Virus record (IMG/VR): IMGVR_UViG_3300038443_000757
Location: 20,614-84,613 of that record
DNA length: 64,000 nucleotides
Strand: one strand, 5' to 3'
DNA from: a virus
Taxonomy: Duplodnaviria > Heunggongvirae > Uroviricota > Caudoviricetes
Numbering within the stretch: position 1 is the stretch's first letter; each line of letters starts with the position of its first letter. Below, piece after piece: positions 3,365-55,735 of the stretch. The notes below the pieces were generated by a model. That model did not search any database. It was not told the DNA's origin and was given only the letters and a program-made list of their open reading frames with translations. Made by a program: the position numbers and the translations under genes.

Positions 3365-4168
3365 ATGATGACAAAAGTAAGCAAAGCAGAGTTCGAAGAA
3401 ACTCTTGGAAAGGTTCTTCAGGAAATCAAATTTGACAGGCACAAGGTAGAATCGGTAAAGGAAGAAATGTTCAAACACGGAGTTATGAGAGGTAAAGTTC
3501 AAAGAATTATCAATGGAACTGTCGGACTTGACAAACTTGACAATGAAGTGTTCTGTCTTCTGACAATAGCTGTTCACCATGTAACACAATTAATGATCAT
3601 CAATCCTTACGGATTTTTCTCAAAAGAAGAAATTGAAAAAGCGAAAAGCAGAATAAAGTCGAAAGATGTCGAAGTTGTCGAATATCCAATTGTTTTCAAA
3701 AATGTAATGCAGTCAAATGATAATGATTATGTGCTTCTTGAAAATGTGAAAACACTAATAAAACTTTACAACGCGAATTTGTTGAACTATAATTACGAAG
3801 TAACTAAGAATTATAAGTTTGAAAAGAATGTTGTTGGGAAAATGGTTAAAACGATTGACATCAATATGAGAGAAGTTAAAACAATTGCCAAGGATATCAT
3901 GGCGAATAAAGCAATTGTTGGACCAATTGTTGTAAATATACTACGTGATAGCTCAAATATTGCCTACAGCCCTCAACATAGAACACTGACAGTTAGCAAC
4001 GGAAAGATTGATATAATAAACGGAATTCACTATTTGAACGCTCTTGCATATGTTGTAGAAAGACAAAATGATTTTAACATGAAAGTTGAATTGGAAATAA
4101 AAAATTATAACTTGAATGAGATCAAAAGACTTTACAACATTCTCAAATTACAAGGGAGTGTCAACTAA
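3365..4168 (+). CDS. hypothetical protein with degenerate ParB/DGQHR-like motif
   Basis: RBS AAAGGAGATG. Motif SPQHRTLTVSNGKIDIINGIHYLNALAYV resembles a ParB/Srx-fold GxxHR box. Confidence 0.5.
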   Translation: MMTKVSKAEFEETLGKVLQEIKFDRHKVESVKEEMFKHGVMRGKVQRIINGTVGLDKLDNEVFCLLTIAVHHVTQLMIINPYGFFSKEEIEKAKSRIKSKDVEVVEYPIVFKNVMQSNDNDYVLLENVKTLIKLYNANLLNYNYEVTKNYKFEKNVVGKMVKTIDINMREVKTIAKDIMANKAIVGPIVVNILRDSSNIAYSPQHRTLTVSNGKIDIINGIHYLNALAYVVERQNDFNMKVELEIKNYNLNEIKRLYNILKLQGSVN

Positions 4169-5142
4169 TGGAGCTTTACAATGCAGATATCAAAGAATTG
4201 TTCTTAAATATGTATGAAAATGAAGATTCTAAATCAACCTACAAGAGAATATTCATTAAAAGTGCTGATACAGAGAGAGTTCTTGGCAAAGATTTAGCTG
4301 AATTCTCAAAGAGTGAAATAGAGGACTTTCTTTCAGATTTGGCACCATTGACAAGCGCCATATCTAGATCAAATGGCAGGATTGTAACATCTTATATATC
4401 TTGGTGCATTGATGCAGGATACAAGAAGGTTGTCATGAATCCATTGAAGCTTGTTGATTCAGAATGGTTTGACAAATTCGTTGACAAGTCTGTAAAGTTA
4501 TACTTCACTGAGAAAGAGATAACAGAGATTGAGCGATTCTGTGAGAATGCACAAGACGCAGTAATTATCAGACTATATTTCGAAGGTGTAGCGGGTAAAG
4601 ATTCTTGTGAAATCAGAAATCTAAACAAATTTGATGTTGACTTTAAAAACAACATCTTACATTTAAGAAATGAAAAAGGAATGCTCGCAAGAAGCATTGA
4701 AGTTTCTGACAGAACCATCAAATTGATCGAGGAAGCATTGAGTGAAAAAACTTACACAAAGAGAAATGGTCAAATGGAAGTCACTGAAAACATTAAAGAA
4801 TTTACAACATTAGTAGAAAATGATTATGTACTTCGTAACTCAGTTACCAAAACTGATAACTACAGTGGCGCTGTTCAATCTTCAGTTGTATACAGAAGAC
4901 TTAAAGTTATCAGTGAAACACTTGGTATTCCATACTTCACAGGAAAAAATATTCTTCGTTCAGGAATACTACACAGAGCAAAGGGGATGTTTCATAATAG
5001 AAAGTTTGATTATGAAAAGTTTAGACCACTTGCCGAAAGATTTAACATTAAAAATATTTATTCCGTTAAAGACTATTGCAACATTGAGACAATAGAAAGT
5101 CTTTATGAAGAAGATGAATATTGTGACGAATGCCGCACATAA
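4168..5142 (+). CDS. hypothetical protein, weak tyrosine-recombinase/integrase-like similarity
   Basis: TAATG overlap with the upstream gene. N-terminal SAM-like region; C-terminal LRSGILHRAK...Y patches like integrase box II. Followed by a terminator. Confidence 0.4.
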   Translation: MELYNADIKELFLNMYENEDSKSTYKRIFIKSADTERVLGKDLAEFSKSEIEDFLSDLAPLTSAISRSNGRIVTSYISWCIDAGYKKVVMNPLKLVDSEWFDKFVDKSVKLYFTEKEITEIERFCENAQDAVIIRLYFEGVAGKDSCEIRNLNKFDVDFKNNILHLRNEKGMLARSIEVSDRTIKLIEEALSEKTYTKRNGQMEVTENIKEFTTLVENDYVLRNSVTKTDNYSGAVQSSVVYRRLKVISETLGIPYFTGKNILRSGILHRAKGMFHNRKFDYEKFRPLAERFNIKNIYSVKDYCNIETIESLYEEDEYCDECRT

Positions 5143-7709: not shown

Positions 7710-9020
7710 ATGTATAATGCATATGTAACTAGAATCAAAAATATTCGTAAACATTCTAATGCTGATCGTCTTCAGGTGGCAACTGTGTTTGGCAATGATG
7801 TAATTGTTGGCCTGAATACACAAGAAGGTGATCTTGTAGTGTACTTCCCAACAGATGGAAAATTGGGTGAAGAGTTTGCCAAAGAAAATAAGCTTACACG
7901 TGAGCTTGGCGGATATTTGGACGATAACAAGAGACATGTAACGACTATCAAATTGCGTGGTGAGCGTTCGGACGGCCTTATTCTTGGGATTGAAAGCCTG
8001 AGCAAGTTCACTGATGTTAGCAAGCTAAAAGAAGGAGATACGATTAGTGTACTTGGAGGCGTAGAAATTTGTTCTAAATATGTACCTTATCGTAAACCAT
8101 CTAATCCTAATCCTTCTAGCAAAGTTAAGACTAAGAAGGCGGTTGAAGACAAAGAGTCTTTCCCTTTGTTCAAAGAACATAGTGATACAGCACAATTGGC
8201 TTATAACCTTGGTCAGTTTAAAGCTGGTGACGAGTGCGTTGTTACGCTTAAGATGCATGGAACTAGTCAACGCACTTCTTATACGATCAAAGAAGAAAAG
8301 GTAGAGCAAGGATTTCTTGCACGGTTGTTCAAGAGGAAAGATAAAATTAATACATCTTGGGATTACGTAACTGGAACACGTAGAGTCACGCTTAAGACGT
8401 TTGACAGTGGTTTCTACGGCTCCAACTCCTTCAGGCAACAATGGCACGATCTGTTCGTTGGAAAGCTCCACAAAGGGGAGAGTGTTTACTACGAGGTTGT
8501 AGGATACACAGACACAGGTAGTCTGATTATGGGTGAGTGTGATAACACGAAAACGAGAGATAAAGAGTTTATTAAGCAATACGGCAAAACTACACAATTC
8601 ACATATGGTTGCGAGTATGGTCAAAGTGATATTTATGTTTACCGTATGACTATGACGAATGAAGACGGTAATATTGTTGAATATCCTTGGCATCTTGTTA
8701 AAACTCGTTGTGAACAGATGGGTGTCAAGCACGTTCCAGAGCTTACAAAAGTTACATTTGGCAATTTAATTGGTGGATTTGGAGATGCAGAAGAAGATGA
8801 ACGAAAAATGTTTATGCATGTTGTAAACCTCTATGCTGATGGGCCTGATCCAATTGGCAAAAGTCACATTAGGGAAGGCGTAATTGTCCGTATTGACAAC
8901 AAAGAGAAGTTTACAGCATTCAAACACAAGTCGTTTAATTTCAAAGTTTTAGAAGGATTAATTAAAGCTGATGCTGAAGCTCCTGACATGGAAGAAAATC
9001 AAGACCAAGTAGAAGAATAA
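7710..9020 (+). CDS. RNA ligase (Rnl2/Rnl5-like nucleotidyltransferase) with N-terminal OB-like domain
   Basis: Motif I LKMHGTS (KxHGT), motif III ESVYYEVVGY, motifs IV/V REGVIVRIDNKEKFTAFKHKSFNFK. Confidence 0.6.
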   Translation: MYNAYVTRIKNIRKHSNADRLQVATVFGNDVIVGLNTQEGDLVVYFPTDGKLGEEFAKENKLTRELGGYLDDNKRHVTTIKLRGERSDGLILGIESLSKFTDVSKLKEGDTISVLGGVEICSKYVPYRKPSNPNPSSKVKTKKAVEDKESFPLFKEHSDTAQLAYNLGQFKAGDECVVTLKMHGTSQRTSYTIKEEKVEQGFLARLFKRKDKINTSWDYVTGTRRVTLKTFDSGFYGSNSFRQQWHDLFVGKLHKGESVYYEVVGYTDTGSLIMGECDNTKTRDKEFIKQYGKTTQFTYGCEYGQSDIYVYRMTMTNEDGNIVEYPWHLVKTRCEQMGVKHVPELTKVTFGNLIGGFGDAEEDERKMFMHVVNLYADGPDPIGKSHIREGVIVRIDNKEKFTAFKHKSFNFKVLEGLIKADAEAPDMEENQDQVEE

Positions 9021-9034
9021 ATGGAGGAATCCAG

Positions 9035-9853
9035 ATGAAACAAAATGATATCATGAACAAACTTGAAAAACAGAAATCTATCCTAGAGTCAATGGGCTAT
9101 AAAGTAGCATTTATAGCCCTCTATGGCTCGCAAAATTACGGCCTTGACATCTACACTGACGAATACAAGTCTGACGTAGATATGAAAGCCGTTGTAGTTC
9201 CTGATCTTGATGATCTTATCTATAACAGCAAACCTGTATCAGAAGTAATTGACACAGAGTGGGGACAGTGTGATATCAAGGATATTCGCACTTACTTTGA
9301 AATTCTGCTCAAAGCTAATCCTGCATATATTGAAACGTTGTTCACAGAATACTTCATTGTTGATGAAGATTTTGTTGATGAGTTCTCTGAAATTCTTTCG
9401 CTAAGAGAAGAAATTGTATATTCCTTGAGAGCGCAATTTGTTAGAGCAATGTACGGAATGATGTGCGAGAAAGAAAAGGCATTGTGCCATCCTTACCCTT
9501 CTATTGCAGATAAGATAGAGAAATATGGGTATGACGGCAAACAGGCTCACCATGTTCTTCGCCTTTATTTGATGATGCTTGACTACTTTTATGAGTTCAA
9601 GACTATGGAAAGATCAATGAAACCAGATAAAGAGCATTATGATTCTCTAATGGATTTGAAAACGAACAAAGAAGATTTAGATACTGTTAAAGGCTATGTT
9701 TCTTACGTCATGAATCTTGCAAAAGATGTAAAAGAAAATATTCTATCTGAAATTAATGAATCTACAATTGACTTCTCTGTCAAACATAGATTTACAATAC
9801 TTTCGCATCGCATTATTAGGAATAAGATTATTTCTGAGATTTCTAAATCGTAA
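9035..9853 (+). CDS. Pol-beta-superfamily nucleotidyltransferase (RNA-repair-associated type)
   Basis: ALYGSQNYGLDIYTDEYKSDVDM gives GS...DxD. Sits between the ligase and the kinase. Confidence 0.6.
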   Translation: MKQNDIMNKLEKQKSILESMGYKVAFIALYGSQNYGLDIYTDEYKSDVDMKAVVVPDLDDLIYNSKPVSEVIDTEWGQCDIKDIRTYFEILLKANPAYIETLFTEYFIVDEDFVDEFSEILSLREEIVYSLRAQFVRAMYGMMCEKEKALCHPYPSIADKIEKYGYDGKQAHHVLRLYLMMLDYFYEFKTMERSMKPDKEHYDSLMDLKTNKEDLDTVKGYVSYVMNLAKDVKENILSEINESTIDFSVKHRFTILSHRIIRNKIISEISKS

Positions 9854-9907: not shown

Positions 9908-10123
9908 ATGAACAGAACACTTAAACAATTTTTAATTGGCTTTTCAATTATACTTATTGCATCTATTATTGCCGTTATTATATCTGAATATCCTAATATT
10001 TTTAGATGGATTCTTATGGCAATTTGTGTGGTTTTAGGCTCTTTTTTTACTGGAGCACTGGCTTTAGAATTGTATGACACATATAAATGGCATAAAGAAT
10101 GGAAGGGGAAGGAACGAAAATGA
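9908..10123 (+). CDS. small membrane protein
   Basis: GGAGG RBS; two TM helices. Confidence 0.5.
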   Translation: MNRTLKQFLIGFSIILIASIIAVIISEYPNIFRWILMAICVVLGSFFTGALALELYDTYKWHKEWKGKERK

Positions 10124-11106
10124 GTAAATTAATCGTTTCTGTTGGCTTGTGTGGTTCTGGAAAATCGACTTATGCAAGCAAACTAGAGAACACTGTAATT
10201 CTATCGTCTGATGAACTTCGTCTTGAGCTTTACGGAGACGTGAACGATCAAACGCATAATGACGAAGTATTCAAAGAGTTGCATAAACGAGCTAAAGATG
10301 CTCTTAAAGAAGGTAAAGATGTATTCTATGATGCAACAAATGTATCTGCAAAGCGTAGAAAGGCATTGGTAGATGAATTCAGATCGCATGTTGATAAACT
10401 AGTTGCAGTTTACTTTGATCTTCCATACGAAATCTGCTTGGAACGTAATGCGAAACGTGATAGAGTTGTACCAGAACGTGTCATTGAGCGTATGTATAAG
10501 ACTCTTCAAATTCCTACGTATTTAGAAGGATGGGATGATATTCAAGCAGTTTCTTACTATCAAGATGTGTTGCGTAAGCTTTATAGTAAAGAGGATTTGG
10601 AAGAAATTATTCTAAATTATGAAATGACACATGAAGAACTGTTTGGACTTCATTTGTTTCAAAGTGAAACATTTAGAAAGATTTATAACCTAGCACAAGA
10701 CAATAGTTTTCATTCGTTCAGTGTAAGTAGACACAGTTACTATGTTTGGAAAGATATTGTAGATAACTATATGACTTATGACGGATATGATAGACTTGTG
10801 CTGGTTTGGGCGGCATTGTTCCATGATACAGGTAAATATTTCTGTAAAGAATTTACAGATGGCAAACGATATGCAAGTTTCATTGGACATGAGAATGTTT
10901 CTTCGCAGTTAGCATTCAATACCCTTATGAGTCTCGGTTACTCTATTGACTTTGTTCTTGATGTTGTTGACATTGTACAGAATCATATGAAACTCTTATC
11001 AATTGGCGATTCTAGTAAAGGTAAGAAAAAATTGCTTGACTTTGTAGGAGAGCCAGTATATAATATGCTTGTACGATTCAAAGAAGCCGATACAAATGCT
11101 AAATAA
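10120..11106 (+). CDS. polynucleotide kinase-like P-loop kinase fused to HD-domain phosphohydrolase
   Basis: Walker A GLCGSGKST, DATN Walker B of the PNK/Zeta type. C-terminal H...HD...H...D (SRHSY, LFHDTGK, GHEN, EADT). Confidence 0.65.
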   Translation: MSKLIVSVGLCGSGKSTYASKLENTVILSSDELRLELYGDVNDQTHNDEVFKELHKRAKDALKEGKDVFYDATNVSAKRRKALVDEFRSHVDKLVAVYFDLPYEICLERNAKRDRVVPERVIERMYKTLQIPTYLEGWDDIQAVSYYQDVLRKLYSKEDLEEIILNYEMTHEELFGLHLFQSETFRKIYNLAQDNSFHSFSVSRHSYYVWKDIVDNYMTYDGYDRLVLVWAALFHDTGKYFCKEFTDGKRYASFIGHENVSSQLAFNTLMSLGYSIDFVLDVVDIVQNHMKLLSIGDSSKGKKKLLDFVGEPVYNMLVRFKEADTNAK

Positions 11107-18277: not shown

Positions 18278-18306
18278 TTGACAAGTGTAAGAATAAATGG
18301 TAGAAT
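18278..18306 (+). promoter_or_regulatory. class-A phage promoter (TTGACA-ag-TGTAAGAATAAATG-g-TAGAAT)
   Basis: Spacer box conserved. Confidence 0.6.
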
Positions 18307-19408: not shown

Positions 19409-19494
19409 CAAATGACAGAATAAATAAAAGGGTAGATTAATTTGTAATAAAATTCTTCTACCCTTTCTACTTGAAGGGAGAAGGATGATCAAAG

Positions 19495-19923
19495 ATGGAA
19501 GAACGGGAAGTTGAATACTCCACTGTAGGAAATCATATTACAGTTGATTTTTGGGGAGTAGACTTTGATAAAACAAATAATTTAAAGTATCTTGAAGGAT
19601 TGTTGATATGTGCCGCTGAAGATGCAGGAGCAACGGTTTTGGATGTAGTTTCAAGACAGTTTGAACCAAACGGATGTACTGTATTAATTCTCTTGTCAGA
19701 GTCACATGCATCATTTCATACCTATCCGCAAAAAGGCTATATTTCGTTTGATTGTTATACGTGTGGAGAAACAGTTGATCCCTACAGGGCTTTCAAGTTC
19801 GTAAAGAGCGTTATTAAACCATCCCGCGTTCACATTAAACAACTTAAAAGAGGTCTTGGGGAAGATTCACCAATCCAGATAATTAATATAGTGGGTGAGT
19901 GGAATGGCAATAGTAAAGTGTAA
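19495..19923 (+). CDS. speH: S-adenosylmethionine decarboxylase proenzyme (SpeH/class I)
   Basis: LSESHASFHTYPQ autoprocessing site (ES|H) and overall match to the short bacterial/archaeal AdoMetDC form. Confidence 0.8.
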   Translation: MEEREVEYSTVGNHITVDFWGVDFDKTNNLKYLEGLLICAAEDAGATVLDVVSRQFEPNGCTVLILLSESHASFHTYPQKGYISFDCYTCGETVDPYRAFKFVKSVIKPSRVHIKQLKRGLGEDSPIQIINIVGEWNGNSKV

Positions 19924-37065: not shown

Positions 37066-37791
37066 ATGAAGGAAATAGAAACAAAGAAAGGATATGTACT
37101 CGTAGATGACCATGTTTATGAGTACATATCTCAATGGAGATGGCAAATAGGTAAAAACGGCTATGCTTGCAGAGACTTTTATGAAAGAGGAAAAAGAAAA
37201 ACAGTAAACTTGCATAGACTTATTTGGGAAAAATTTGTTGGTACAATTTCTGACGGCCTTTATGTAGATCATATTAATAGGGATAGGCTAGATAATACGT
37301 TAGATAATTTAAGACTTGTGACTCCTCATCAAAACAGTCTGAATTCTAGCAAGCAATCAAACAACTTGTCTTCTAAATATAAAGGTGTAACAAAAAATAA
37401 GCAAACTGGTAATTGGGTAGCCTATATAACAAAGCACAAGAAAAGGAATTGTATTGGCTCCTTTACAAATGAAGAAGCCGCCGCCAATGCCTACAACTAT
37501 CATGCAGAAAAAGAATTTGGAGATTTTTCTAGTCTTAATGAAGTTGAAATTGTGATGAGTTACAGTGAGTGGAATAAATTTATGTTACCAAAAAGAGGTT
37601 TAAATAATTACTCTGGCATATCTTTTAGAAAAGATAATGGCAAATGGAGGGTTTTATTGTACGATCTTCAAAAAAATAAAATCAATGTTGGTCATTATAA
37701 CTCTGAAAGAGAAGCATTGATTGCAAGAAATAATTATGTAACAAATCATCTAGAGCTTGCTGATAAATATCCAATTGAAGAGTATGAGTAA
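37066..37791 (+). CDS. HNH homing endonuclease with AP2-type DNA-binding repeats
   Basis: YVDHINRDRLDNTLDNLRLVTPHQN (HNH_3); YKGV...GNWVA and SGISFRKDNGKWRV AP2-like repeats. Confidence 0.8.
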   Translation: MKEIETKKGYVLVDDHVYEYISQWRWQIGKNGYACRDFYERGKRKTVNLHRLIWEKFVGTISDGLYVDHINRDRLDNTLDNLRLVTPHQNSLNSSKQSNNLSSKYKGVTKNKQTGNWVAYITKHKKRNCIGSFTNEEAAANAYNYHAEKEFGDFSSLNEVEIVMSYSEWNKFMLPKRGLNNYSGISFRKDNGKWRVLLYDLQKNKINVGHYNSEREALIARNNYVTNHLELADKYPIEEYE

Positions 37792-40924: not shown

Positions 40925-41491
40925 ATGGGTAGTATTTATGCCATTGTAAATAAAATAAATGGAAGAATGTATATTGGTAGAACAAAAAAATTTAAATCCA
41001 GATTGGCTCAACATAATCATATGTTGAGCCAAGGAGAGCATGAAAATAGATTGATTAATGAGGATTTACAAAAATACGGAAAAATAAGTTTTGAAATATA
41101 TGAAATAGAAAATGTATCTGATAATAACAAATTATATCAATTAGAAATAGATTATATAAAAAAGCATAATACCTGTGTGTCTGATGGAGGATTTGGTTAT
41201 AACATTTCTTCTGGAGGTGAATTTTCTTCGGGCGGAGTTAAATTATCTGATGAAATAAAAAATGAAATTAGTAAAAAAATGAAGGGTAGAAAATTCTCTA
41301 AAGAACACTCTAGAAAAAAATCTGAAGCACAAATTGGAAGCAGTAATCCTATTGCTAAAAGAGTTAGCGTAAATGGTAAAATATATGAATGTATTAAGTA
41401 TGTCTCTGTTGAATTAAGCTTAAAGCATAATACTGTTATTTACAGGCTCAATTCTAAAAGTGAAAGATTTAAAGATTGGTTTTATTTGTAG
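40925..41491 (+). CDS. GIY-YIG homing endonuclease (freestanding)
   Basis: GSIYAIVNKINGRMYIGRT...RLAQHN GIY-YIG core; C-terminal NUMOD-like DNA-binding region. Confidence 0.8.
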   Translation: MGSIYAIVNKINGRMYIGRTKKFKSRLAQHNHMLSQGEHENRLINEDLQKYGKISFEIYEIENVSDNNKLYQLEIDYIKKHNTCVSDGGFGYNISSGGEFSSGGVKLSDEIKNEISKKMKGRKFSKEHSRKKSEAQIGSSNPIAKRVSVNGKIYECIKYVSVELSLKHNTVIYRLNSKSERFKDWFYL

Positions 41492-46483: not shown

Positions 46484-47863
46484 ATGTTAAAAGATTTATT
46501 TTCTAATCCTCTTATTTTGACTGATACGTACAATCTATCTCATCAATTTCTCAAGTTCAATAATGACTGGGAAGTTAGCCATGTTTATAATAGAAAGCGT
46601 CCAATGGTACTTTATGGGGTTTCTGAAGCTGTAAATCGTGTTCTTTCTATTAAAATTGAAATGTGGATGGTTGACGAAGCTGAACAATATGCAAAAGAAA
46701 AAAGTATGCCATTCCCAAGAGAGTTGTGGGAACGAGTTGTAAATGAATTCAATGGCTATGCACCAATCATGATTGAATCTCTTCCTGAAGGATCATATAT
46801 TCCTGCTGGTACACCATTCATGCAGATTCGTAATACCGTTGAAGGATTTGGCGAATTAAAGGATTGGTGGGAAGGTATTATTCTTCAAAATGCTTTTGCC
46901 TCTGGTTGCGCTACACGTGCATATGAAATGGCAAAGTATCTTAAAGACAACGATCTTCCAATGATTCGTTTTCATAGTTTTGGATGGCGTGGGCATCAAT
47001 GTCCAGAAAGTGGATATTGGGCTGGTACTGCTTGGAATCTATTCCTTGTAGGAACTGATGATTTCCATACTAAAAAGCATACACCAAAAGCCAAGATTGG
47101 TAGCATTCCTGCACTTGCACATAAGGTAACTCAGCAATTCGATAAAGAATATGATTGTTATATTCGTGCAATTGATTTTGCTGTCAATACGCCACTTCGA
47201 ACTGTGGCATTAGTTATTGATACTTATGATGCTAATCGTTTTATTAATCAGTATCTTATTGGCCTTGCTCGCTATGCACTTGACAAAGGTGTCCATATTG
47301 TTTGCCGTCCTGACAGTGGAGATGTTCTTGATCAAGCTATTGAGATTTACAAAGTATGTATTGAAAACAATCTTGCAAACGTCTCTGTGATCATTGGAGA
47401 AGGCATTACGTTTGAGGTGGTCAAAGCATATGATGCAAAGCTTAAAGATGCTGGAGTGCCATTGGCGTTCGTCTCTTATGGTATTGGTGCTGGATTCTAC
47501 AAGGACATTGACCGTGACTACCTTGGATTTGCAATGAAGGTTGCATTCTCTAATGGTAAGCCACGTATGAAATTTGGAATGACAGCGTTGAAGCGCAGTA
47601 TTCCCGGCAAGGTTTCTATCATTAAAAAAGACGGAGATTTGCTCGTCATTCCTGAAGGAAGTCTTATGTCCTATACGTACAATGATCTTTATGAGATTAT
47701 TTATGTTCATGATGACACTACTGAAGAGCCAATTATCAAAACAACTGAATGGAATGAAATTTATGATCGTGTTCAAGAAGTTGATGATCATCAAAAAGTA
47801 ATCTACATTTCTCAGGAAATTGAAAATATGATTGCTGAATTCAAAGAACAATATAAAGGGTGA
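46484..47863 (+). CDS. nadV: nicotinamide phosphoribosyltransferase (NAMPT/NadV)
   Basis: N-terminal NPLILTDTYNLSH (cf. NAMPT ..TDSYKVTH); about 460 aa type II PRTase. Confidence 0.8.
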   Translation: MLKDLFSNPLILTDTYNLSHQFLKFNNDWEVSHVYNRKRPMVLYGVSEAVNRVLSIKIEMWMVDEAEQYAKEKSMPFPRELWERVVNEFNGYAPIMIESLPEGSYIPAGTPFMQIRNTVEGFGELKDWWEGIILQNAFASGCATRAYEMAKYLKDNDLPMIRFHSFGWRGHQCPESGYWAGTAWNLFLVGTDDFHTKKHTPKAKIGSIPALAHKVTQQFDKEYDCYIRAIDFAVNTPLRTVALVIDTYDANRFINQYLIGLARYALDKGVHIVCRPDSGDVLDQAIEIYKVCIENNLANVSVIIGEGITFEVVKAYDAKLKDAGVPLAFVSYGIGAGFYKDIDRDYLGFAMKVAFSNGKPRMKFGMTALKRSIPGKVSIIKKDGDLLVIPEGSLMSYTYNDLYEIIYVHDDTTEEPIIKTTEWNEIYDRVQEVDDHQKVIYISQEIENMIAEFKEQYKG

Positions 47864-47868
47864 TATGT

Positions 47869-48642
47869 ATGGAAATGAATATGAACAATAAAGATGCAAA
47901 TGGAGATATTATTAGCGCAACACCGCCTAGGCCTTGGACAATTGGCGATCCTCCACCATATAATCATGAAAAAAATAACACAATCTGGACTGGGCCATCA
48001 ACTTTCCCATATCTTACACCTATGCCTAAAAAACCATTTAAATTTGGTTTTTTGCTTGGACGATTCCAGCATATTCATATTGGTCATGAACAAATGATTG
48101 ATAGAGCGCTTGATGTTTGCGAGAAGGTTTTGGTCATTGTTGGCTCTGCACAAGATGATGCACGAATTACCAATCCAATTCGCAATCCGTTTGAAACTCA
48201 TTTTCGCATTAGGCTTATCAATGAGATTTATAAAGACAAGCCAAATCTCTTTGTAACGTCTATGCCTGATTTGACTCACGAAAATGATCATAGCTGGGCA
48301 TGGGGCAACTTTGTTCTTCAAAATGTTGCACTGCGAGCTAATCAGTATGATATCAAAGAAAGTCCTGATATTATGGTTTTTGGTAATGACGAAGAAAGAA
48401 TGTCGTGGTTTAATCCAGACGATATCAAGACAGTTAATCAACTGATTGTTGCGCGTGGAAACATTGACATTAGTGCTACTCAAATGCGCAATTATCTTGT
48501 TGAAAATAATTTTTGGAAATGGCGGCAGTATGTAAACTTGAAACTTTCACCATTGTTCCCTGTAATTCGTGAAGAACTTTTCAAAGTAGAACACTACAGA
48601 AAGTTGGCTGAAGAAAATGGAACAATCAATGCCCACAAGTAA
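47869..48642 (+). CDS. nicotinamide-nucleotide adenylyltransferase (NadM/NatV-type)
   Basis: GFLLGRFQHIHIGHEQMI (HxGH nucleotidyltransferase motif); ISATQMR C-terminal motif. Confidence 0.75.
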   Translation: MEMNMNNKDANGDIISATPPRPWTIGDPPPYNHEKNNTIWTGPSTFPYLTPMPKKPFKFGFLLGRFQHIHIGHEQMIDRALDVCEKVLVIVGSAQDDARITNPIRNPFETHFRIRLINEIYKDKPNLFVTSMPDLTHENDHSWAWGNFVLQNVALRANQYDIKESPDIMVFGNDEERMSWFNPDDIKTVNQLIVARGNIDISATQMRNYLVENNFWKWRQYVNLKLSPLFPVIREELFKVEHYRKLAEENGTINAHK

Positions 48643-49174
48643 ACTTTGCAAGGAAAATTATAAAGGTGCCATTTACACTGATCGAACTGAAGAAATTTCA
48701 TTTCCAGACGGAAAGAAAATTACTAGAGATGTTATTGTAAAAAATGAAGTGGCGGTCGCACTGGTTCATAATATTGACACTGATACTGTAGTTCTTATTA
48801 GAGAATTTAGAGTTGGTTCTATGAAGTATGAACTTGGTGGCGTTGCTGGCATTGTTGAAGTTGGTGAATATCCCATGAATGCAATTGTTAGAGAACTTGT
48901 TGAAGAAACTGGGTATAGTGATACAGTTATTGTACAATCCCTTGGAACAACTATGACTTCCTCTGGCTTTACCAATGAAAAAGTTCATCACTTTTACATT
49001 AAAGTGAGGGGCTTGAGAGGCGATCAGAATCTTGATGCAGATGAATCTATTGAAGTTATTGAGCGTCCTTTTGAAGATATTGCTATTATGATGGCAAATG
49101 GTGAAATTACTTCTAATCATTTACACGCTTGCTTGTTAAAACTTATGATGAATAATGGATATGAATTGGTATGA
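48617..49174 (+). CDS. Nudix hydrolase (ADP-ribose pyrophosphatase-like)
   Basis: Nudix box GGVAGIVEVGEYPMNAIVRELVEETGY. Confidence 0.8.
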   Translation: MEQSMPTSKLCKENYKGAIYTDRTEEISFPDGKKITRDVIVKNEVAVALVHNIDTDTVVLIREFRVGSMKYELGGVAGIVEVGEYPMNAIVRELVEETGYSDTVIVQSLGTTMTSSGFTNEKVHHFYIKVRGLRGDQNLDADESIEVIERPFEDIAIMMANGEITSNHLHACLLKLMMNNGYELV

Positions 49175-51232: not shown

Positions 51233-53539
51233 ATGGAATTAAATGTAATTGATAATTGTGCTTGTTGTGCAACTGAAGATGGATTTGTAAATCTCCATTT
51301 ACACACAGCATATTCGCTTCTCGATGCACTTAGTAAGCCAGAAGATATTATAGCAAAAGTAAAAGGTTTAAATCAAAGAGGATTTGCTTGTACGGAACAC
51401 GGCAACGTTCATAGTTCTGTAAAAGCTTATAAATTGGCTAAAGAAAATTCTTTGAAGTTTATTTATGGATTAGAGGCATATATCACTGAAGATAGATTTA
51501 TCAAAGATAAAACAAATAAATACTATCATCTAACTATCCTAGCAAAAAATGAACAGGGTAGACAGAACATCAATAAGCTTGTAACAATCTCCAATCTTGA
51601 AGGATTTTATTTTAAACCTCGTATTGACTTTAAATTGCTTGAAGAATTTGGTGATGGCTTAATCATCATGTCAGGATGTATGGCCTCTGAATTGCAACAA
51701 GCATTAGCTGGAGGAAAGATTGGTAATGGTGATGTTGAAATAACATCTGGCAACATTGAGAGAGCCAAAGAAATTGCAAGACGTTATCGTAATGCATTTG
51801 GTGAGGATTATTATCTTGAAGTTCAATCACACAGAGATAAGCGTCAACAGCAATTAAATCGTGCGATAGTTGACATTGCAAAAGACTTAGGCATTCAATG
51901 GGTTGCTACTGCTGACAGTCATTTTGTCAATGAAGAAGATTTAGATTTGCACAGGGTTTTCATTGGTATCAACCGTAACAAAGACGATTTTGAATCTGAC
52001 GAAACATATCAAGACACACAGATTCAAAGTGAAAAAGAGGCATGGAATCTTCTTATGTCTTTGACTGAAGATGAGCGTAATGTTGCAATTAGGAATACTC
52101 TGAACATAATGGATAAATGCAATGCTCCATTGCCACTTTCAGCACCTTTAATTCCTCATGTTAAAGTTCCAGAAGGTTTTGAAACTGAGGAAGATTACTT
52201 GCAACATTTGTGTAACGAGGGATGGAAGTTTAGGAAGATTGGATATAAATCAAAGAAGCTTCAACAAGAATATAGGGACAGACTTATTTATGAATTTAAT
52301 GCGATCAAGGATATGGGATTCACAGGATACTATCTCCTTGTTTATGGATACGCAACATCTGTTCGCAGAAGAGGTATTGCACGTGGTTCTGGTGGAGGTT
52401 CGCTTGTAGCTTATCTGATTAATATTGTAGATATTGATCCAATTGAACATGGATTGTATTTTGAGCGCTTTATTGATGTTGCCCAACTTGATTTAATCAA
52501 GAGTGGAGAGCTTAAGCCTGAAGAGATTAAAATACCAGATTTTGATTTGGATTTCGGCACAAAAGAACGCGATCTTGTCTATAACAATATCGTTACTGAA
52601 CATGGGTATGAGCATGTTGTAGCTCTTGGTCAATTTGGTTACATCTGGACCAAGAGCGCTATCAAGGATGTTGGTAGAGTGCTTGGAGTGCCATTTGAAG
52701 TAACGAATGAGATAACGAAGCTACTAGGAGAGGATACGATTGCAGAAGGGCTTACAAGTGGCATTCTGAAGCCCTATCAGCGTCAATATCCAAGACTGTT
52801 TGAGTATGCAATGAAACTAGAAGGATTACCCCGCTCATATGGAATGCATCCATGCGGTAAGGTAGTAACGATTGATCCTGCTGTTTATTATACAGGATTA
52901 TCACAGAAGGAAGGTCAGCTTGTCTTACAAGTTGACATGAAAGATGCAGAAGCACTTGGTTTAGTTAAGGTAGATTTACTTGGACTTCGTACAGTTGATG
53001 TAATCTATGACACACTAGATATGATTGGCAAGGACACTGAATATATCCGTAACATCACATACGATTGTGCTGAGATGTTAGAAATCTTTAAAAATGGATT
53101 TACTGACGGAGTTTTCCAGTTCGAGAGCGAAGGTATGAAGCAAACATTGATAAATATGATTCCTACCCATTTAGATGATCTAGGAGTTGTAAATGCTCTG
53201 TATAGGCCAGGAAGTTTGAAATATATCAAAAACTACATTGATAGGAAGCACGGAAGAGAACAATTTGAATATCTTCACCCTGATCTTGAACGTATTCTTA
53301 AAATCTCTTATGGCATTATTGTATATCAAGAACAACTGATTGAGATTGGACGAATGGCTGGCATGCGTAATCCAGACCTTTTACGTCAAGCTACAGGTAA
53401 AAAAGATATGAAGAAACTTGCGAAAGCTGAGCCTGAACTTCGTGATGGCTTGTACAAAAGAGGTTGGACAAAGGAGCAGGTAGATCAATTGTGGGAAGAT
53501 ATGCTGAACTTCGCCAAATATTCATTTAATAAAGCCCAT
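51233..53539 (+). CDS. dnaE: DNA polymerase III alpha (DnaE-type) exon 1: PHP domain, palm and fingers up to FNKAH
   Basis: PHP motif VNLHLHTAYSLLDAL; ends in the conserved YSFNKAH fingers motif. The 3' boundary is inferred. Confidence 0.7.
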
Positions 53540-53714
53540 AAAATGTGTGTGGCTTAGTGTGGCGACATACTAAGAAAATCCTTCTAATTGCGGGGAACTC
53601 CTAAAGACTTCAATACCAACTTAATATGGTGACATGATTAAGGGCGTTGCTAACTACAACGATATGGTAAAAAGTTGAAGTATAAATAATATGGACAATC
53701 CGCATCGAGACTTC

Positions 53715-53766: not shown

Positions 53767-54771
53767 ATGGCAAAAAAATATACTCAAAAACAAAAAGAAC
53801 TTATTTTAAAATTATATCAAGAGGCACAAGACTTGGATGAGGCTATATTAAGATTAAAAGAACAAGGAATAGTCATGACTAGGCAGGCAATGGCTGATAT
53901 GGCTCACGATAATGGTATAAAAAGAAAAAGAATTTATACAAAACAAAACAAATTATCAGTCATAGAGATAAGGCAATTAGTTTCAGATTATGAGTCTGGT
54001 ATTTTTACTATGGAAGAATTGATAAAAAAGTATGGTTTTAAAACAAGAAAATCAATAACAGATAAAGTTAAACTTTATAATGGCAAAATGAGAACGCAAG
54101 ATGAAGCTAATAAAATGAGAAAAACTTATGAAGAAACAATGTTTAATAAGCTTGATGCGGAATGGAAAGCTTATATGGTTGGACTGCTTCTTACCGATGG
54201 TTATATTACCAATGATCAAATAGGACTTGATTTAACCGATGAAGATGCAATAAGTTATCTTGCAGAAATGACTGGAAAGGGTAATTACACGACAATTGTT
54301 GATAGTTGTAAAAGTAAAAAGGCAAAATATAGACTAACTCTTAATTCTAAAACAATTATAGATGATTTGACTAGATTTGGGGTTGTGCCAAGAAAATCTC
54401 TAACATTAAAGGGGCCGTTGCTCAATGAAGATGAAAGAAATTATATTCCACATATCTTTAAAGGAATTATTGATGGAGACGGCTGGATTAGAAGTGATGG
54501 CAAAGAATTTTTTATCGTTTCTGCTTCAAGAGATTTTCTTGAGTGGTGCATAAAAGAGTTAATTCTATTAGGAATGAGTAATTTAAAAATTACTCAAAAA
54601 ACATTTGATAATGAAAAGTGGAATGACTGTTTTCTTGTTAGGACTGCTCTTAAATCAAATATAACTATTTTAAAAGAGAAAATATACGTCTATGACTTAG
54701 GGATGGGTCGTAAACGTGAAAAATTATTTCAAGAAGGGCGTTCAGAGACTACCACAAGGAAATCTCAATAA
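53767..54771 (+). CDS. LAGLIDADG homing endonuclease (double-motif) with N-terminal helix-turn-helix region
   Basis: Two LAGLIDADG motifs: MVGLLLTDGYI and FKGIIDGDGWI. Confidence 0.8.
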   Translation: MAKKYTQKQKELILKLYQEAQDLDEAILRLKEQGIVMTRQAMADMAHDNGIKRKRIYTKQNKLSVIEIRQLVSDYESGIFTMEELIKKYGFKTRKSITDKVKLYNGKMRTQDEANKMRKTYEETMFNKLDAEWKAYMVGLLLTDGYITNDQIGLDLTDEDAISYLAEMTGKGNYTTIVDSCKSKKAKYRLTLNSKTIIDDLTRFGVVPRKSLTLKGPLLNEDERNYIPHIFKGIIDGDGWIRSDGKEFFIVSASRDFLEWCIKELILLGMSNLKITQKTFDNEKWNDCFLVRTALKSNITILKEKIYVYDLGMGRKREKLFQEGRSETTTRKSQ

Positions 54772-54844
54772 ACTTTGAGATTATGGTATAGTCCAGACCA
54801 CAACGTATATATAATGCGACTAAGGAAATCTTAGTGTGGTAAAG

Positions 54845-55735
54845 TCACAAGCTTATGCAATTATTGCAATGATCTGTGCATATCTGAAAGCATTCCACCC
54901 AACTGAGTTTATGTGTGCATGGCTTAACTCCTTAGTAGATCATCACGATAAAATTGAAACTGCTTTCAAAGAGGCTAAACGAATGGGAGTTAAAATAAAG
55001 CCATTAAATTTCAAAGATGCAAATGCTTTATGTAAAGTGGTTGATGGAGAGCTTGTCTACGGAATCTCTTTGATTAAACACTGTAACGCTCAGATTGCAG
55101 AAGATATTGCAAAGCTTCAGCCAGCAAATCGTTTTGTTGATATGATCATTCAAATCAAAGAACTTACTTCAATCAACTCTAAACAACTTGATATCCTTAT
55201 CAAACTTGATTTCTTCTCTGAGTATGGAAGCAAAGAACTATTGCTTACAATCCTTAAAGAAGTCAACGATGGCAAGAGCAGATATAACAAGACGCACAAG
55301 GAGGCAACTAAGCTCAAACGAATTGCGGCACTTCATGAATATGAGGACGAGCTTAGACAGGGACAAGTTGACTTGTCCATTAAACCATATGAACAAATTG
55401 CATTTGAACTTGATCATTATGGTTTCATCAAAACAACTTTTAAAGAAATTCCTAAAACAATACTAGCTGTAATGGATATCGACATGAAGCCTAAAACAGC
55501 TTATATTGCAGTTAAGTCATTCTGCTATAAAACTGGAGACACGTTTGAGTTCAGAGTCAAGAAGGATAAGTTTTATGGCAAAAAAGATATTGAATCTTTT
55601 GAAGTTGGAGATTCCATTAAGATCAAAAATCTTTCTGAAAAAGCTAGAGTACGTAAAGATGAAACTACTGGCAAATGGATTGAAACTGGAGTAAATGATT
55701 ATTATCTTGAGAAAGCAATAAAAATAAAACTATAA
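54845..55735 (+). CDS. dnaE: DNA polymerase III alpha (DnaE-type) exon 2: rest of fingers, HhH and C-terminal OB region
   Basis: SQAYAIIAMICAYLKAFHPTEFMCAWLNS aligns to DnaE ([25 protein letters not shown]). Confidence 0.65.
   Translation, partial: SQAYAIIAMICAYLKAFHPTEFMCAWLNSLVDHHDKIETAFKEAKRMGVKIKPLNFKDANALCKVVDGELVYGISLIKHCNAQIAEDIAKLQPANRFVDMIIQIKELTSINSKQLDILIKLDFFSEYGSKELLLTILKEVNDGKSRYNKTHKEATKLKRIAALHEYEDELRQGQVDLSIKPYEQIAFELDHYGFIKTTFKEIPKTILAVMDIDMKPKTAYIAVKSFCYKTGDTFEFRVKKDKFYGKKDIESFEVGDSIKIKNLSEKARVRKDETTGKWIETGVNDYYLEKAIKIKL

Follow-up and report, generated by a model that had tools for sequence, protein, structure and literature searches.

A predicted pyruvoyl-dependent S-adenosylmethionine decarboxylase with a Glu-to-Gln change in a large SPbeta-like phage of Bacillales

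In the class 1b S-adenosylmethionine decarboxylase (AdoMetDC, SpeD/SpeH) of Thermotoga maritima, S63, H68 and C83 are the processing and catalytic residues, and they are common to SpeD, SpeDA and SpeDC (PMC10407285). The solo phage speD genes of S-PM2, phiYS40, phiN3 and P2559s, carried without the spermidine synthase gene speE, restore spermidine in E. coli delta-speD, and co-expression of the S-PM2 enzyme with E. coli speE converts ~90% of putrescine into spermidine (PMC9992855). A solo phage speD can therefore drive the pathway, and speD without speE is typical for phage speD. Phage speD homologs of other lineages decarboxylate arginine (SpeDA, e.g., pelagiphage HTVC201P) or ornithine (SpeDC) (PMC9992855), and this neofunctionalisation occurs widely across bacteria and archaea (PMC10407285). 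Here we analyze a speD/speH-type gene at positions 19495..19923 (plus strand, stop codon included) of a 64,000-nucleotide stretch, hereafter the window, from the tailed-virus record IMGVR_UViG_3300038443_000757. The gene probably encodes a functional pyruvoyl-dependent class 1b AdoMetDC, derived from a Paenibacillaceae-type lineage, that would boost host spermidine synthesis. The protein carries a Gln in place of a conserved Glu that contacts the ribose of S-adenosylmethionine (SAM) in the human enzyme.

The gene is a 142-codon open reading frame (ORF) with its ATG at 19495 and the end of its stop codon at 19923, and it carries LSESHASFHTYPQ at residues 67-79, exactly as the original prediction had stated. 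Its assignment as a class 1b AdoMetDC proenzyme homolog combines the ORF list and translation with profile and fold matches. Pfam PF02675 (AdoMet_dc) is matched over its whole length (profile positions 1-107 of 107, E 8.5e-33, 113.3 bits against a cutoff of 25), and the NCBIfam equivalog TIGR03330 (SAM_DCase_Bsu) scores 121.5 bits against a cutoff of 75.65, so the predicted match to the entire short class I form holds. PHROG 3125, “S-adenosylmethionine decarboxylase”, is matched with E 4.7e-30, and the T. maritima AdoMetDC entries 1VR7, 1TLU and 1TMI are the PDB sequence matches (E 6e-25 to about 1e-24). An AlphaFold2 model built with 25 homologs has a core with a predicted local distance difference test (pLDDT) score above 90 and a low-confidence C-terminal tail (residues 120-142). 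Its best Foldseek matches are 1tmi, 1vr7, 1tlu and 2iii, with template modelling (TM) scores of 0.81-0.85; against 1TMI/1TLU the target-normalised TM is 0.85 and the root mean square deviation 2.3 Å. The predicted model thus has the AdoMetDC alpha/beta sandwich fold, and the possibility that the SES motif sits in an unrelated fold, which would have overturned the original prediction, is rejected by the Foldseek match to T. maritima AdoMetDC. The same protein was called on 14 contigs from several samples, and the gene DNA is identical in all four assemblies whose DNA could be fetched, with flanks at least 99.8% identical to the window; an assembly artefact is rejected on these grounds. Collectively, the window protein is a full-length, well-conserved member of the class 1b AdoMetDC family.

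Alignment with the T. maritima enzyme, a check that the original prediction had proposed, places Glu69-Ser70 on E62-S63, His75 on H68 and Cys90 on C83. The Ser is present in 154 of 156 family domains. Over these 156 diverse domains, 19 columns are conserved at 80% or more, and the window protein agrees at 18 of them, including Gly12, His14, Phe56, Pro58, Gly60, Glu69, Ser70, His71, His75, Pro78, Asp86, Cys90, Gly91, Arg119 and Gly120; the sole deviation is residue 79. Phe56 is the retained counterpart of T. maritima F49 and human F223, the residue that stacks on adenine. We infer that self-cleavage of the proenzyme at the Glu69-Ser70 bond would yield the alpha and beta chains. The T. maritima alignment and the column table delimit a predicted beta chain of residues 1-69 (19495..19701, plus strand, 7.68 kDa) that contains Phe56. 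The same alignment, together with the pLDDT profile, delimits a predicted alpha chain of residues 70-142 (19702..19920, plus strand, 8.29 kDa) that contains His75 (codon 19717-19719) and Cys90 (codon 19762-19764). The TCA codon of Ser70 (19702-19704) specifies the would-be pyruvoyl cofactor at the alpha chain's N terminus.

The proposed function follows the chemistry of the family, while the residues named can be read in the sequence itself. The 15.9-kDa proenzyme would cut itself between Glu69 and Ser70, so that the alpha chain would begin with a pyruvoyl group made from Ser70, and the two chains would assemble as in T. maritima. The pyruvoyl group would react with the amino group of SAM to give a Schiff base, CO2 would be lost, and reprotonation by Cys90, helped by His75, would release decarboxylated SAM (dcSAM). 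We propose that host SpeE would then join dcSAM with putrescine to give spermidine, because no spermidine synthase is found in the window. The resulting polyamine could serve phage translation, replication and charge neutralisation of the large packaged genome. Such a role fits the metabolic genes nearby, which encode ribonucleotide reductase (RNR), ThyA, DHFR, dUTPase, guanylate kinase and a nicotinamide adenine dinucleotide (NAD) salvage pathway.

The class 1b enzymes of T. maritima (1TLU, 1TMI, 1VR7, 3IWB-D) and Aquifex aeolicus (2III) share with the window protein the length class, the fold, the Glu-Ser site, the His, the Cys, the Pro, the F49-equivalent Phe and the C-terminal R-G motif. 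The window protein is 35% identical to the T. maritima enzyme and differs from it by a Tyr for the Trp of H-T-W-P-E, a feature common to the Paenibacillus clade, by the phage-specific Gln for the ribose-binding Glu, and by a 22-residue low-confidence C-terminal tail. The characterised solo phage speD genes of S-PM2, phiYS40 and phiN3 likewise belong to large phages without speE, where a host spermidine synthase is expected to complete the pathway; they differ in that the window phage has a host in the phylum Bacillota and would represent an independent acquisition, and in sequence identity (32%, 24% and 17%, respectively).

As SpeD, SpeDA and SpeDC share the fold, the self-processing Ser/His/Cys and an occurrence in phages, also without speE, the motif that the original prediction had taken as a hallmark of SAM decarboxylase does not identify the substrate: the motif region is also present in arginine and ornithine decarboxylases (PMC10407285). 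SpeDA does not conserve the Pro of H-T-W-P-E, which is invariant in genuine AdoMetDC, while SpeDC is marked by diagnostic Gln, Thr, Phe and Tyr residues in the central region (PMC10407285). We placed the SpeDC marker sites through the Fig. S5 alignment text of that study, and the placement was confirmed on P0184, a natural fusion of SpeD and SpeDC with VQLIETS...HFA...AYIDIFSC in its C-domain. At these sites, which in SpeDC hold Gln (-5), Thr (-1), Phe (following the catalytic His) and Tyr (preceding x-D-x-F-S-C), the window protein has Ile65, Glu69, Thr76 and Ser84, i.e., none of the four markers. Pro78 is retained, although the rule is not absolute, as the validated phiYS40 enzyme lacks the Pro in the alignment. 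TIGR03330 gives 155 bits for T. maritima and 133 for S-PM2, both validated, compared with 121.5 for the window protein, 118.6 for the SpeD half of the fusion, 70.3 for validated phiYS40 and 46.5 for the SpeDC-type half of the fusion. Identity of the window protein to phiN3, to the SpeDC-type domain and to the pelagiphage lineage is only 17-22%. The last of these, represented by unassayed relatives as HTVC201P itself is not in the phage collection, is 19-21% identical to the window protein and reads IETSHI...HSWDE, without the Pro. A search with a 33-residue SpeDC bait returned Sinorhizobium phages only. On the absence of all four markers, the retained Pro78, the TIGR03330 scores (121.5 versus 46.5 bits) and the identity pattern, SpeDC identity is excluded by these sequence comparisons, and SpeDA identity appears unlikely. 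The described SpeDA lineages all lie outside Bacillota (PMC10407285). In a neighbour-joining (NJ) tree, the window protein groups with two metagenomic proteins, P0002 and P0003, the latter confirmed as phage-borne, and this group stands beside Paenibacillus/Bacillales proteins and Bacillus phage vB_BcoS-136.

The only unusual feature of the protein is Gln79, the last residue of the motif string in the original prediction, where the replacement of a conserved ribose-binding Glu went unremarked. Its CAA codon (19729..19731, plus strand) is one transversion away from GAA and takes the place of the Glu conserved in H-x-x-P-E (E72 in T. maritima, E247 in human). In human AdoMetDC, E247 hydrogen-bonds both the O2' and the O3' of the SAM ribose (PMC3686867). 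We mapped this role onto residue 79 by conserved spacing from the catalytic His and from S55/S229 rather than by structural superposition: human H243-E247 corresponds to T. maritima H68-E72, F223-S229 to F49-S55 and E67-S68 to E62-S63, and our T. maritima numbering reproduces the published S63, H68 and C83. Among 158 family domains, this column holds Glu in 134, Asp in 10 and Gln in 4, the window protein included. Gln is found in the window protein only among the 120 closest database proteins, and relatives that are 66-67% identical, a sister phage among them, retain HTYPE. A sequencing error at codon 79 was considered and rejected, as the gene is identical in independent assemblies. Gln79 probably weakens or retunes SAM binding without abolishing it; altered affinity is expected rather than lost function because Gln could still hydrogen-bond the ribose. 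Two weak hints point to tolerance at this site: the validated phiYS40 enzyme reads HYWIDE in the same turn, and in P0136, which has two domains, the second of them without the Ser and Cys, the only competent domain reads HTWPQ. Of the other Gln variants, P0242 (L018 6001-6474) lies on a phage-like 52-kb contig with dense co-directional unannotated genes, P0178 (L021 6001-6405) on a sparsely annotated contig of 1.6 Mb that carries kinase, RNase III and tRNA-synthetase-like genes, and P0136 on an archaeal-looking contig. P0242 at least hints that Gln may recur at this site in viruses, a reading of low probability.

The sister phage (P0003), present in the same samples, shows that the gene is a stably inherited and selected part of the phage lineage. 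Its protein is 67% identical to that of the window, and neighbouring genes are ~78% identical at the DNA level. The gene order YorF - AAA_24 - SLT - small ORFs - AdoMet_dc - YorH is common to both phages (sister contigs L011-L013), and ~28 nt around the Shine-Dalgarno (SD) sequence and start codon are nearly identical. Between the two copies, the nonsynonymous divergence (dN) is 0.27 and synonymous sites are saturated (proportion of synonymous differences, pS, 0.73), giving a dN/dS of ~0.1 or lower.

The closest cellular relatives are Paenibacillus proteins of ~132 residues, 55-62% identical to the window protein, with the motif SESH(L/I)SIHTYPE(K/R)GF; they share SESH-x-S-I/F-HTYP with it and differ in keeping the Glu and in their chromosomal housekeeping locus. 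That conserved locus has the order lonB-lonA-engB-[speD]-hemA, with speD between engB and the hemA operon, and the gene stands alone in Collibacillus. Bacillales class 1b SpeD proteins form two families that are ~41% identical (P0018/P0020 versus P0271/P0301/P0310; loci L005-L007 and L017). The B. subtilis type has HSFPEHGY and 124-127 residues; this family was gathered with an approximate query (best match 89%), and B. subtilis is not among the 120 matches listed. An entry labelled “Neobacillus”, which together with a “proenzyme 2” name had hinted at a second paralog, shares the synteny of Paenibacillus and is 89% identical. The window protein has 58% identity to the Paenibacillus type and 33% to the B. 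subtilis type. Taken jointly with a functional AdoMetDC, acquisition of the phage gene from a Paenibacillaceae-type host lineage is the probable history.

Phage AdoMetDC genes are not unusual, contrary to what the original prediction had implied. Homologs occur in 150 of 50,697 phage records, mostly cyanophages and mostly annotated as AdoMetDC, the family has its own PHROG (3125), and its biochemistry is published (PMC9992855). Phage speD is thus an already known kind of auxiliary metabolic gene. Among Bacillales phages the gene is rare: within the 50,697-record collection, vB_BcoS-136 alone of the cultured ones has a homolog, and its “speH” (AYP68208) is the best phage match (45.6% identity over the domain) and falls in the same NJ clade. 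Like the window phage, vB_BcoS-136 is a large phage of Bacillales, a siphovirus, and its protein has an HTYPE-type motif; unlike the window protein, it has 357 residues, keeps the Glu (HTYPEQ) and lies in another genomic neighbourhood. In this gene (L008 5767-6840; MH884508.1 33085-34158), the AdoMetDC domain occupies residues ~79-193, between a ~78-residue N-terminal segment and a ~165-residue C-terminal extension, neither of which had a match in the searches made. Such a fused architecture is unusual for class 1b.

Several observations weigh against a functional AdoMetDC in the window. Gln79 stands where the human counterpart Glu binds the SAM ribose, Gln occurs at this position in only 3 of 156 other family domains, no Gln variant proven as a working AdoMetDC was found, and none of the three other Gln variants (P0242, P0178 and P0136) has speE beside it. 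The Paenibacillus-type gene is never beside speE at the loci examined, and the type is only ~41% identical to the validated B. subtilis type; we found no published activity data for any of its members, which is the main limit on our confidence. SpeDA is poorly separable from SpeD by sequence (PMC10407285), and the NJ tree was built without experimentally validated SpeDA sequences. The speE scan covered the 64-kb window of a ~169-kb phage, with the other ~105 kb outside it.

A rival reading is a changed substrate, whereby the protein would have kept self-processing and lost its preference for SAM, acting instead on arginine (SpeDA-like) or another amino acid to give agmatine or putrescine. Neofunctionalisation is documented for phage SpeD, and phages are where it was discovered; SpeDA, which is close to SpeD in sequence, has at least three or four origins, the one deviating conserved residue contacts the nucleoside part of SAM, and the absence of speE from the window matches the “anomalous speD without speE” criterion of PMC10407285. 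Nevertheless, phages with a proven AdoMetDC normally carry speD alone, the window protein has the Pro that SpeDA has lost and none of the SpeDC markers, and both the adenine-stacking Phe56 and Glu69 are kept. The pelagiphage arginine decarboxylase lineage is distant, with 19-21% identity, and no SpeDA clade is known in Bacillota. The validated phiYS40 AdoMetDC also varies in the residue-79 turn. Moreover, the Glu is retained in the sister phage and in every one of the 119 other close relatives, so that any substrate shift would have to be very recent and to rest on one conservative change; we therefore regard a changed substrate as unlikely. We give similarly little credence to Glu79Gln as an adaptive, lineage-specific retuning, which might have shifted substrate or kinetics (e.g., towards a non-nucleoside substrate, as in SpeDA evolution) or produced a low-affinity SAM decarboxylase that is active only at high SAM and lowers SAM for host defences. 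That the change cripples SAM binding, leaving a decaying passenger or a binding-only protein (e.g., in a heteromer with the host enzyme), seems very improbable. A residue conserved in 85% of family domains is indeed changed, uniquely among close relatives; however, the ORF is intact, the SD and start codon are conserved, the residues for processing and catalysis are all kept, the lineage is under purifying selection with the same sequence on 14 contigs from several samples, and Gln may still hydrogen-bond the ribose hydroxyls.

A different selective benefit is conceivable for the same enzyme activity. The SAM-draining idea of the original prediction is of this kind: a true AdoMetDC could have been selected mainly for lowering SAM or raising dcSAM early in infection, thereby disabling Type I/III restriction or bacteriophage exclusion (BREX), like the T3 SAM lyase. 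Phage SAM-degrading enzymes that counter restriction exist (PMC7877911), and BREX methylation and defence require SAM (PMC11842806). The phage also has other probable counter-defence metabolism, in the form of NAD salvage (46.5-49.2 kb) and an RNA-repair trio (7.7-11.1 kb). The phage SAM lyases/SAMases (T3 gp0.3, Svi3-3) would likewise consume SAM, but they belong to an unrelated family of lyases that produce methylthioadenosine and homoserine lactone, and no likeness of the window protein to them was found in the Pfam, PHROGs, PDB sequence or fold searches. Nothing in the window sequence favours a counter-defence benefit, and a full-text literature search returned no report that ties an AdoMetDC of phages to anti-defence. 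Turnover is slow in those phage family members that have been measured, with turnover numbers (kcat) of 0.2-0.9 per s on their own substrates (PMC9992855), and pyruvoyl enzymes inactivate themselves by substrate-mediated transamination (PMC10407285), which makes them poor bulk drains. A Gln that weakens SAM binding would oppose a drain role. In addition, the gene is part of the replication/nucleotide-metabolism module and does not sit among immediate-early anti-defence genes at a genome end. We thus consider counter-defence an improbable main benefit, and the boosting of host spermidine synthesis by an AdoMetDC the probable one.

In a large SPbeta-like phage of Bacillales, the window forms the module for replication and nucleotide metabolism, with nearly all genes on the plus strand. 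It encodes YorF- and YorH-family proteins, an AAA_24 ATPase, an SLT transglycosylase, a Toprim primase, a RecJ-like DHH protein, ClpP, RusA, the large and small RNR subunits, dUTPase, ThyA, DHFR, guanylate kinase and NT5C; at the 3' end, the minus strand carries the genes for a beta-helix protein and an amidase. The description of the speD-type gene as sitting among small early genes holds only in part: small ORFs are nearby, but the gene is inside this module and overlaps an SPbeta yorH-family gene. Contigs with the gene reach ~169 kb. DNA polymerase III (PolIII) alpha points to Brevibacillus phage Sundance (57.8%) as the nearest cultured phage, and there the speD-type gene has no match. A megablast search with 6 kb around the gene against the 50,697 phage records gave no match, and the phage therefore has no close sequenced relative. 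The absence of speE from the window, as the original prediction had noted, was confirmed: none of the 40 non-shadow ORFs of at least 168 residues scanned with Pfam encodes a spermidine synthase, nor an agmatinase, other decarboxylase, methyltransferase or SAM synthetase, and speE was not found within the 10-kb flanks of the sister-phage gene. No Rfam families or tRNAs were found in the window.

The speD-type gene is followed by the YorH-family gene (PF26927; 19904..20512, plus strand), whose start overlaps its 3' end by 20 nt and which has homologs in Tsamsa-like and SPbeta-like Bacillus phages. Co-transcription of the two genes is probable, because the yorH-like gene is a conserved neighbour. 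Upstream, an SD-like sequence, GAAGGGAGAAGGA (19473..19485, plus strand), lies 9 nt before the ATG. The 86-nt spacer between the preceding small ORF and speD contains a stem-loop (19427..19466, plus strand) with a 10-bp outer and an inner 5-bp stem, an RNA folding energy of -18.4 kcal/mol (z -2.1) and no T-run after it. This element is missing from the sister phage and was not flagged by the terminator scan; it could be a weak terminator or an RNA-stability element after the preceding ORF. The nearest strong upstream sigma-70-like promoter match, TTGACA-17-TAGAAT with a TG element (18278..18306, plus strand, 11 of 12 consensus positions), is a candidate start of the speD transcription unit; promoter-like sites in the region are no more numerous than in shuffles.

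Other genes of the window, all on the plus strand, are observations in their own right. An NAD salvage trio comprises a NAMPT-like gene (46484-47863), an NMNAT-like gene of the cytidylyltransferase fold (47860-48642) and a NUDIX hydrolase gene (48617-49174), which we take to resemble the KVP40 NadV/NatV pathway and the “NAD reconstitution” counter-defence pathways; the sister phage has phosphoribosyl pyrophosphate synthetase and NAMPT genes in its place (L011 8171-10673). An RNA-repair-like trio consists of an RNA ligase that bears a PHA02142 OB domain (7710-9020), the nucleotidyltransferase RlaP (9035-9853) and a fusion of an AAA_33/KTI12-type kinase with an HD phosphatase (10099-11106), and may mend tRNA damage caused by host anticodon nucleases. 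PolIII alpha is split into a piece with PHP, NTPase and finger domains (51233-53557) and an HHH_6-containing C-terminal piece (54836-55735), with a LAGLIDADG endonuclease ORF (53767-54771) between them, which suggests an intron or intein-type insertion as in SPbeta-like phages. Free-standing homing endonuclease genes of the HNH_3+AP2 and GIY-YIG/I-TevI-like types (37066-37791 and 40925-41491) lie among the dUTPase, RNR and ThyA genes. In the early region, an MrpR-type tyrosine recombinase with an N-terminal core-binding domain and a catalytic domain (4168-5142) may be relevant to lysogeny or dimer resolution.

An anti-restriction role would be the more exciting reading and is so far without support. 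The family of the window protein is known to switch substrates, and the finding opens no new kind of biology. If the enzyme is active, it would extend virus-encoded polyamine metabolism to large SPbeta-like phages of Bacillales, and the natural Gln variant and its Glu-bearing sister protein form a test pair for the role of this residue in SAM affinity and specificity.

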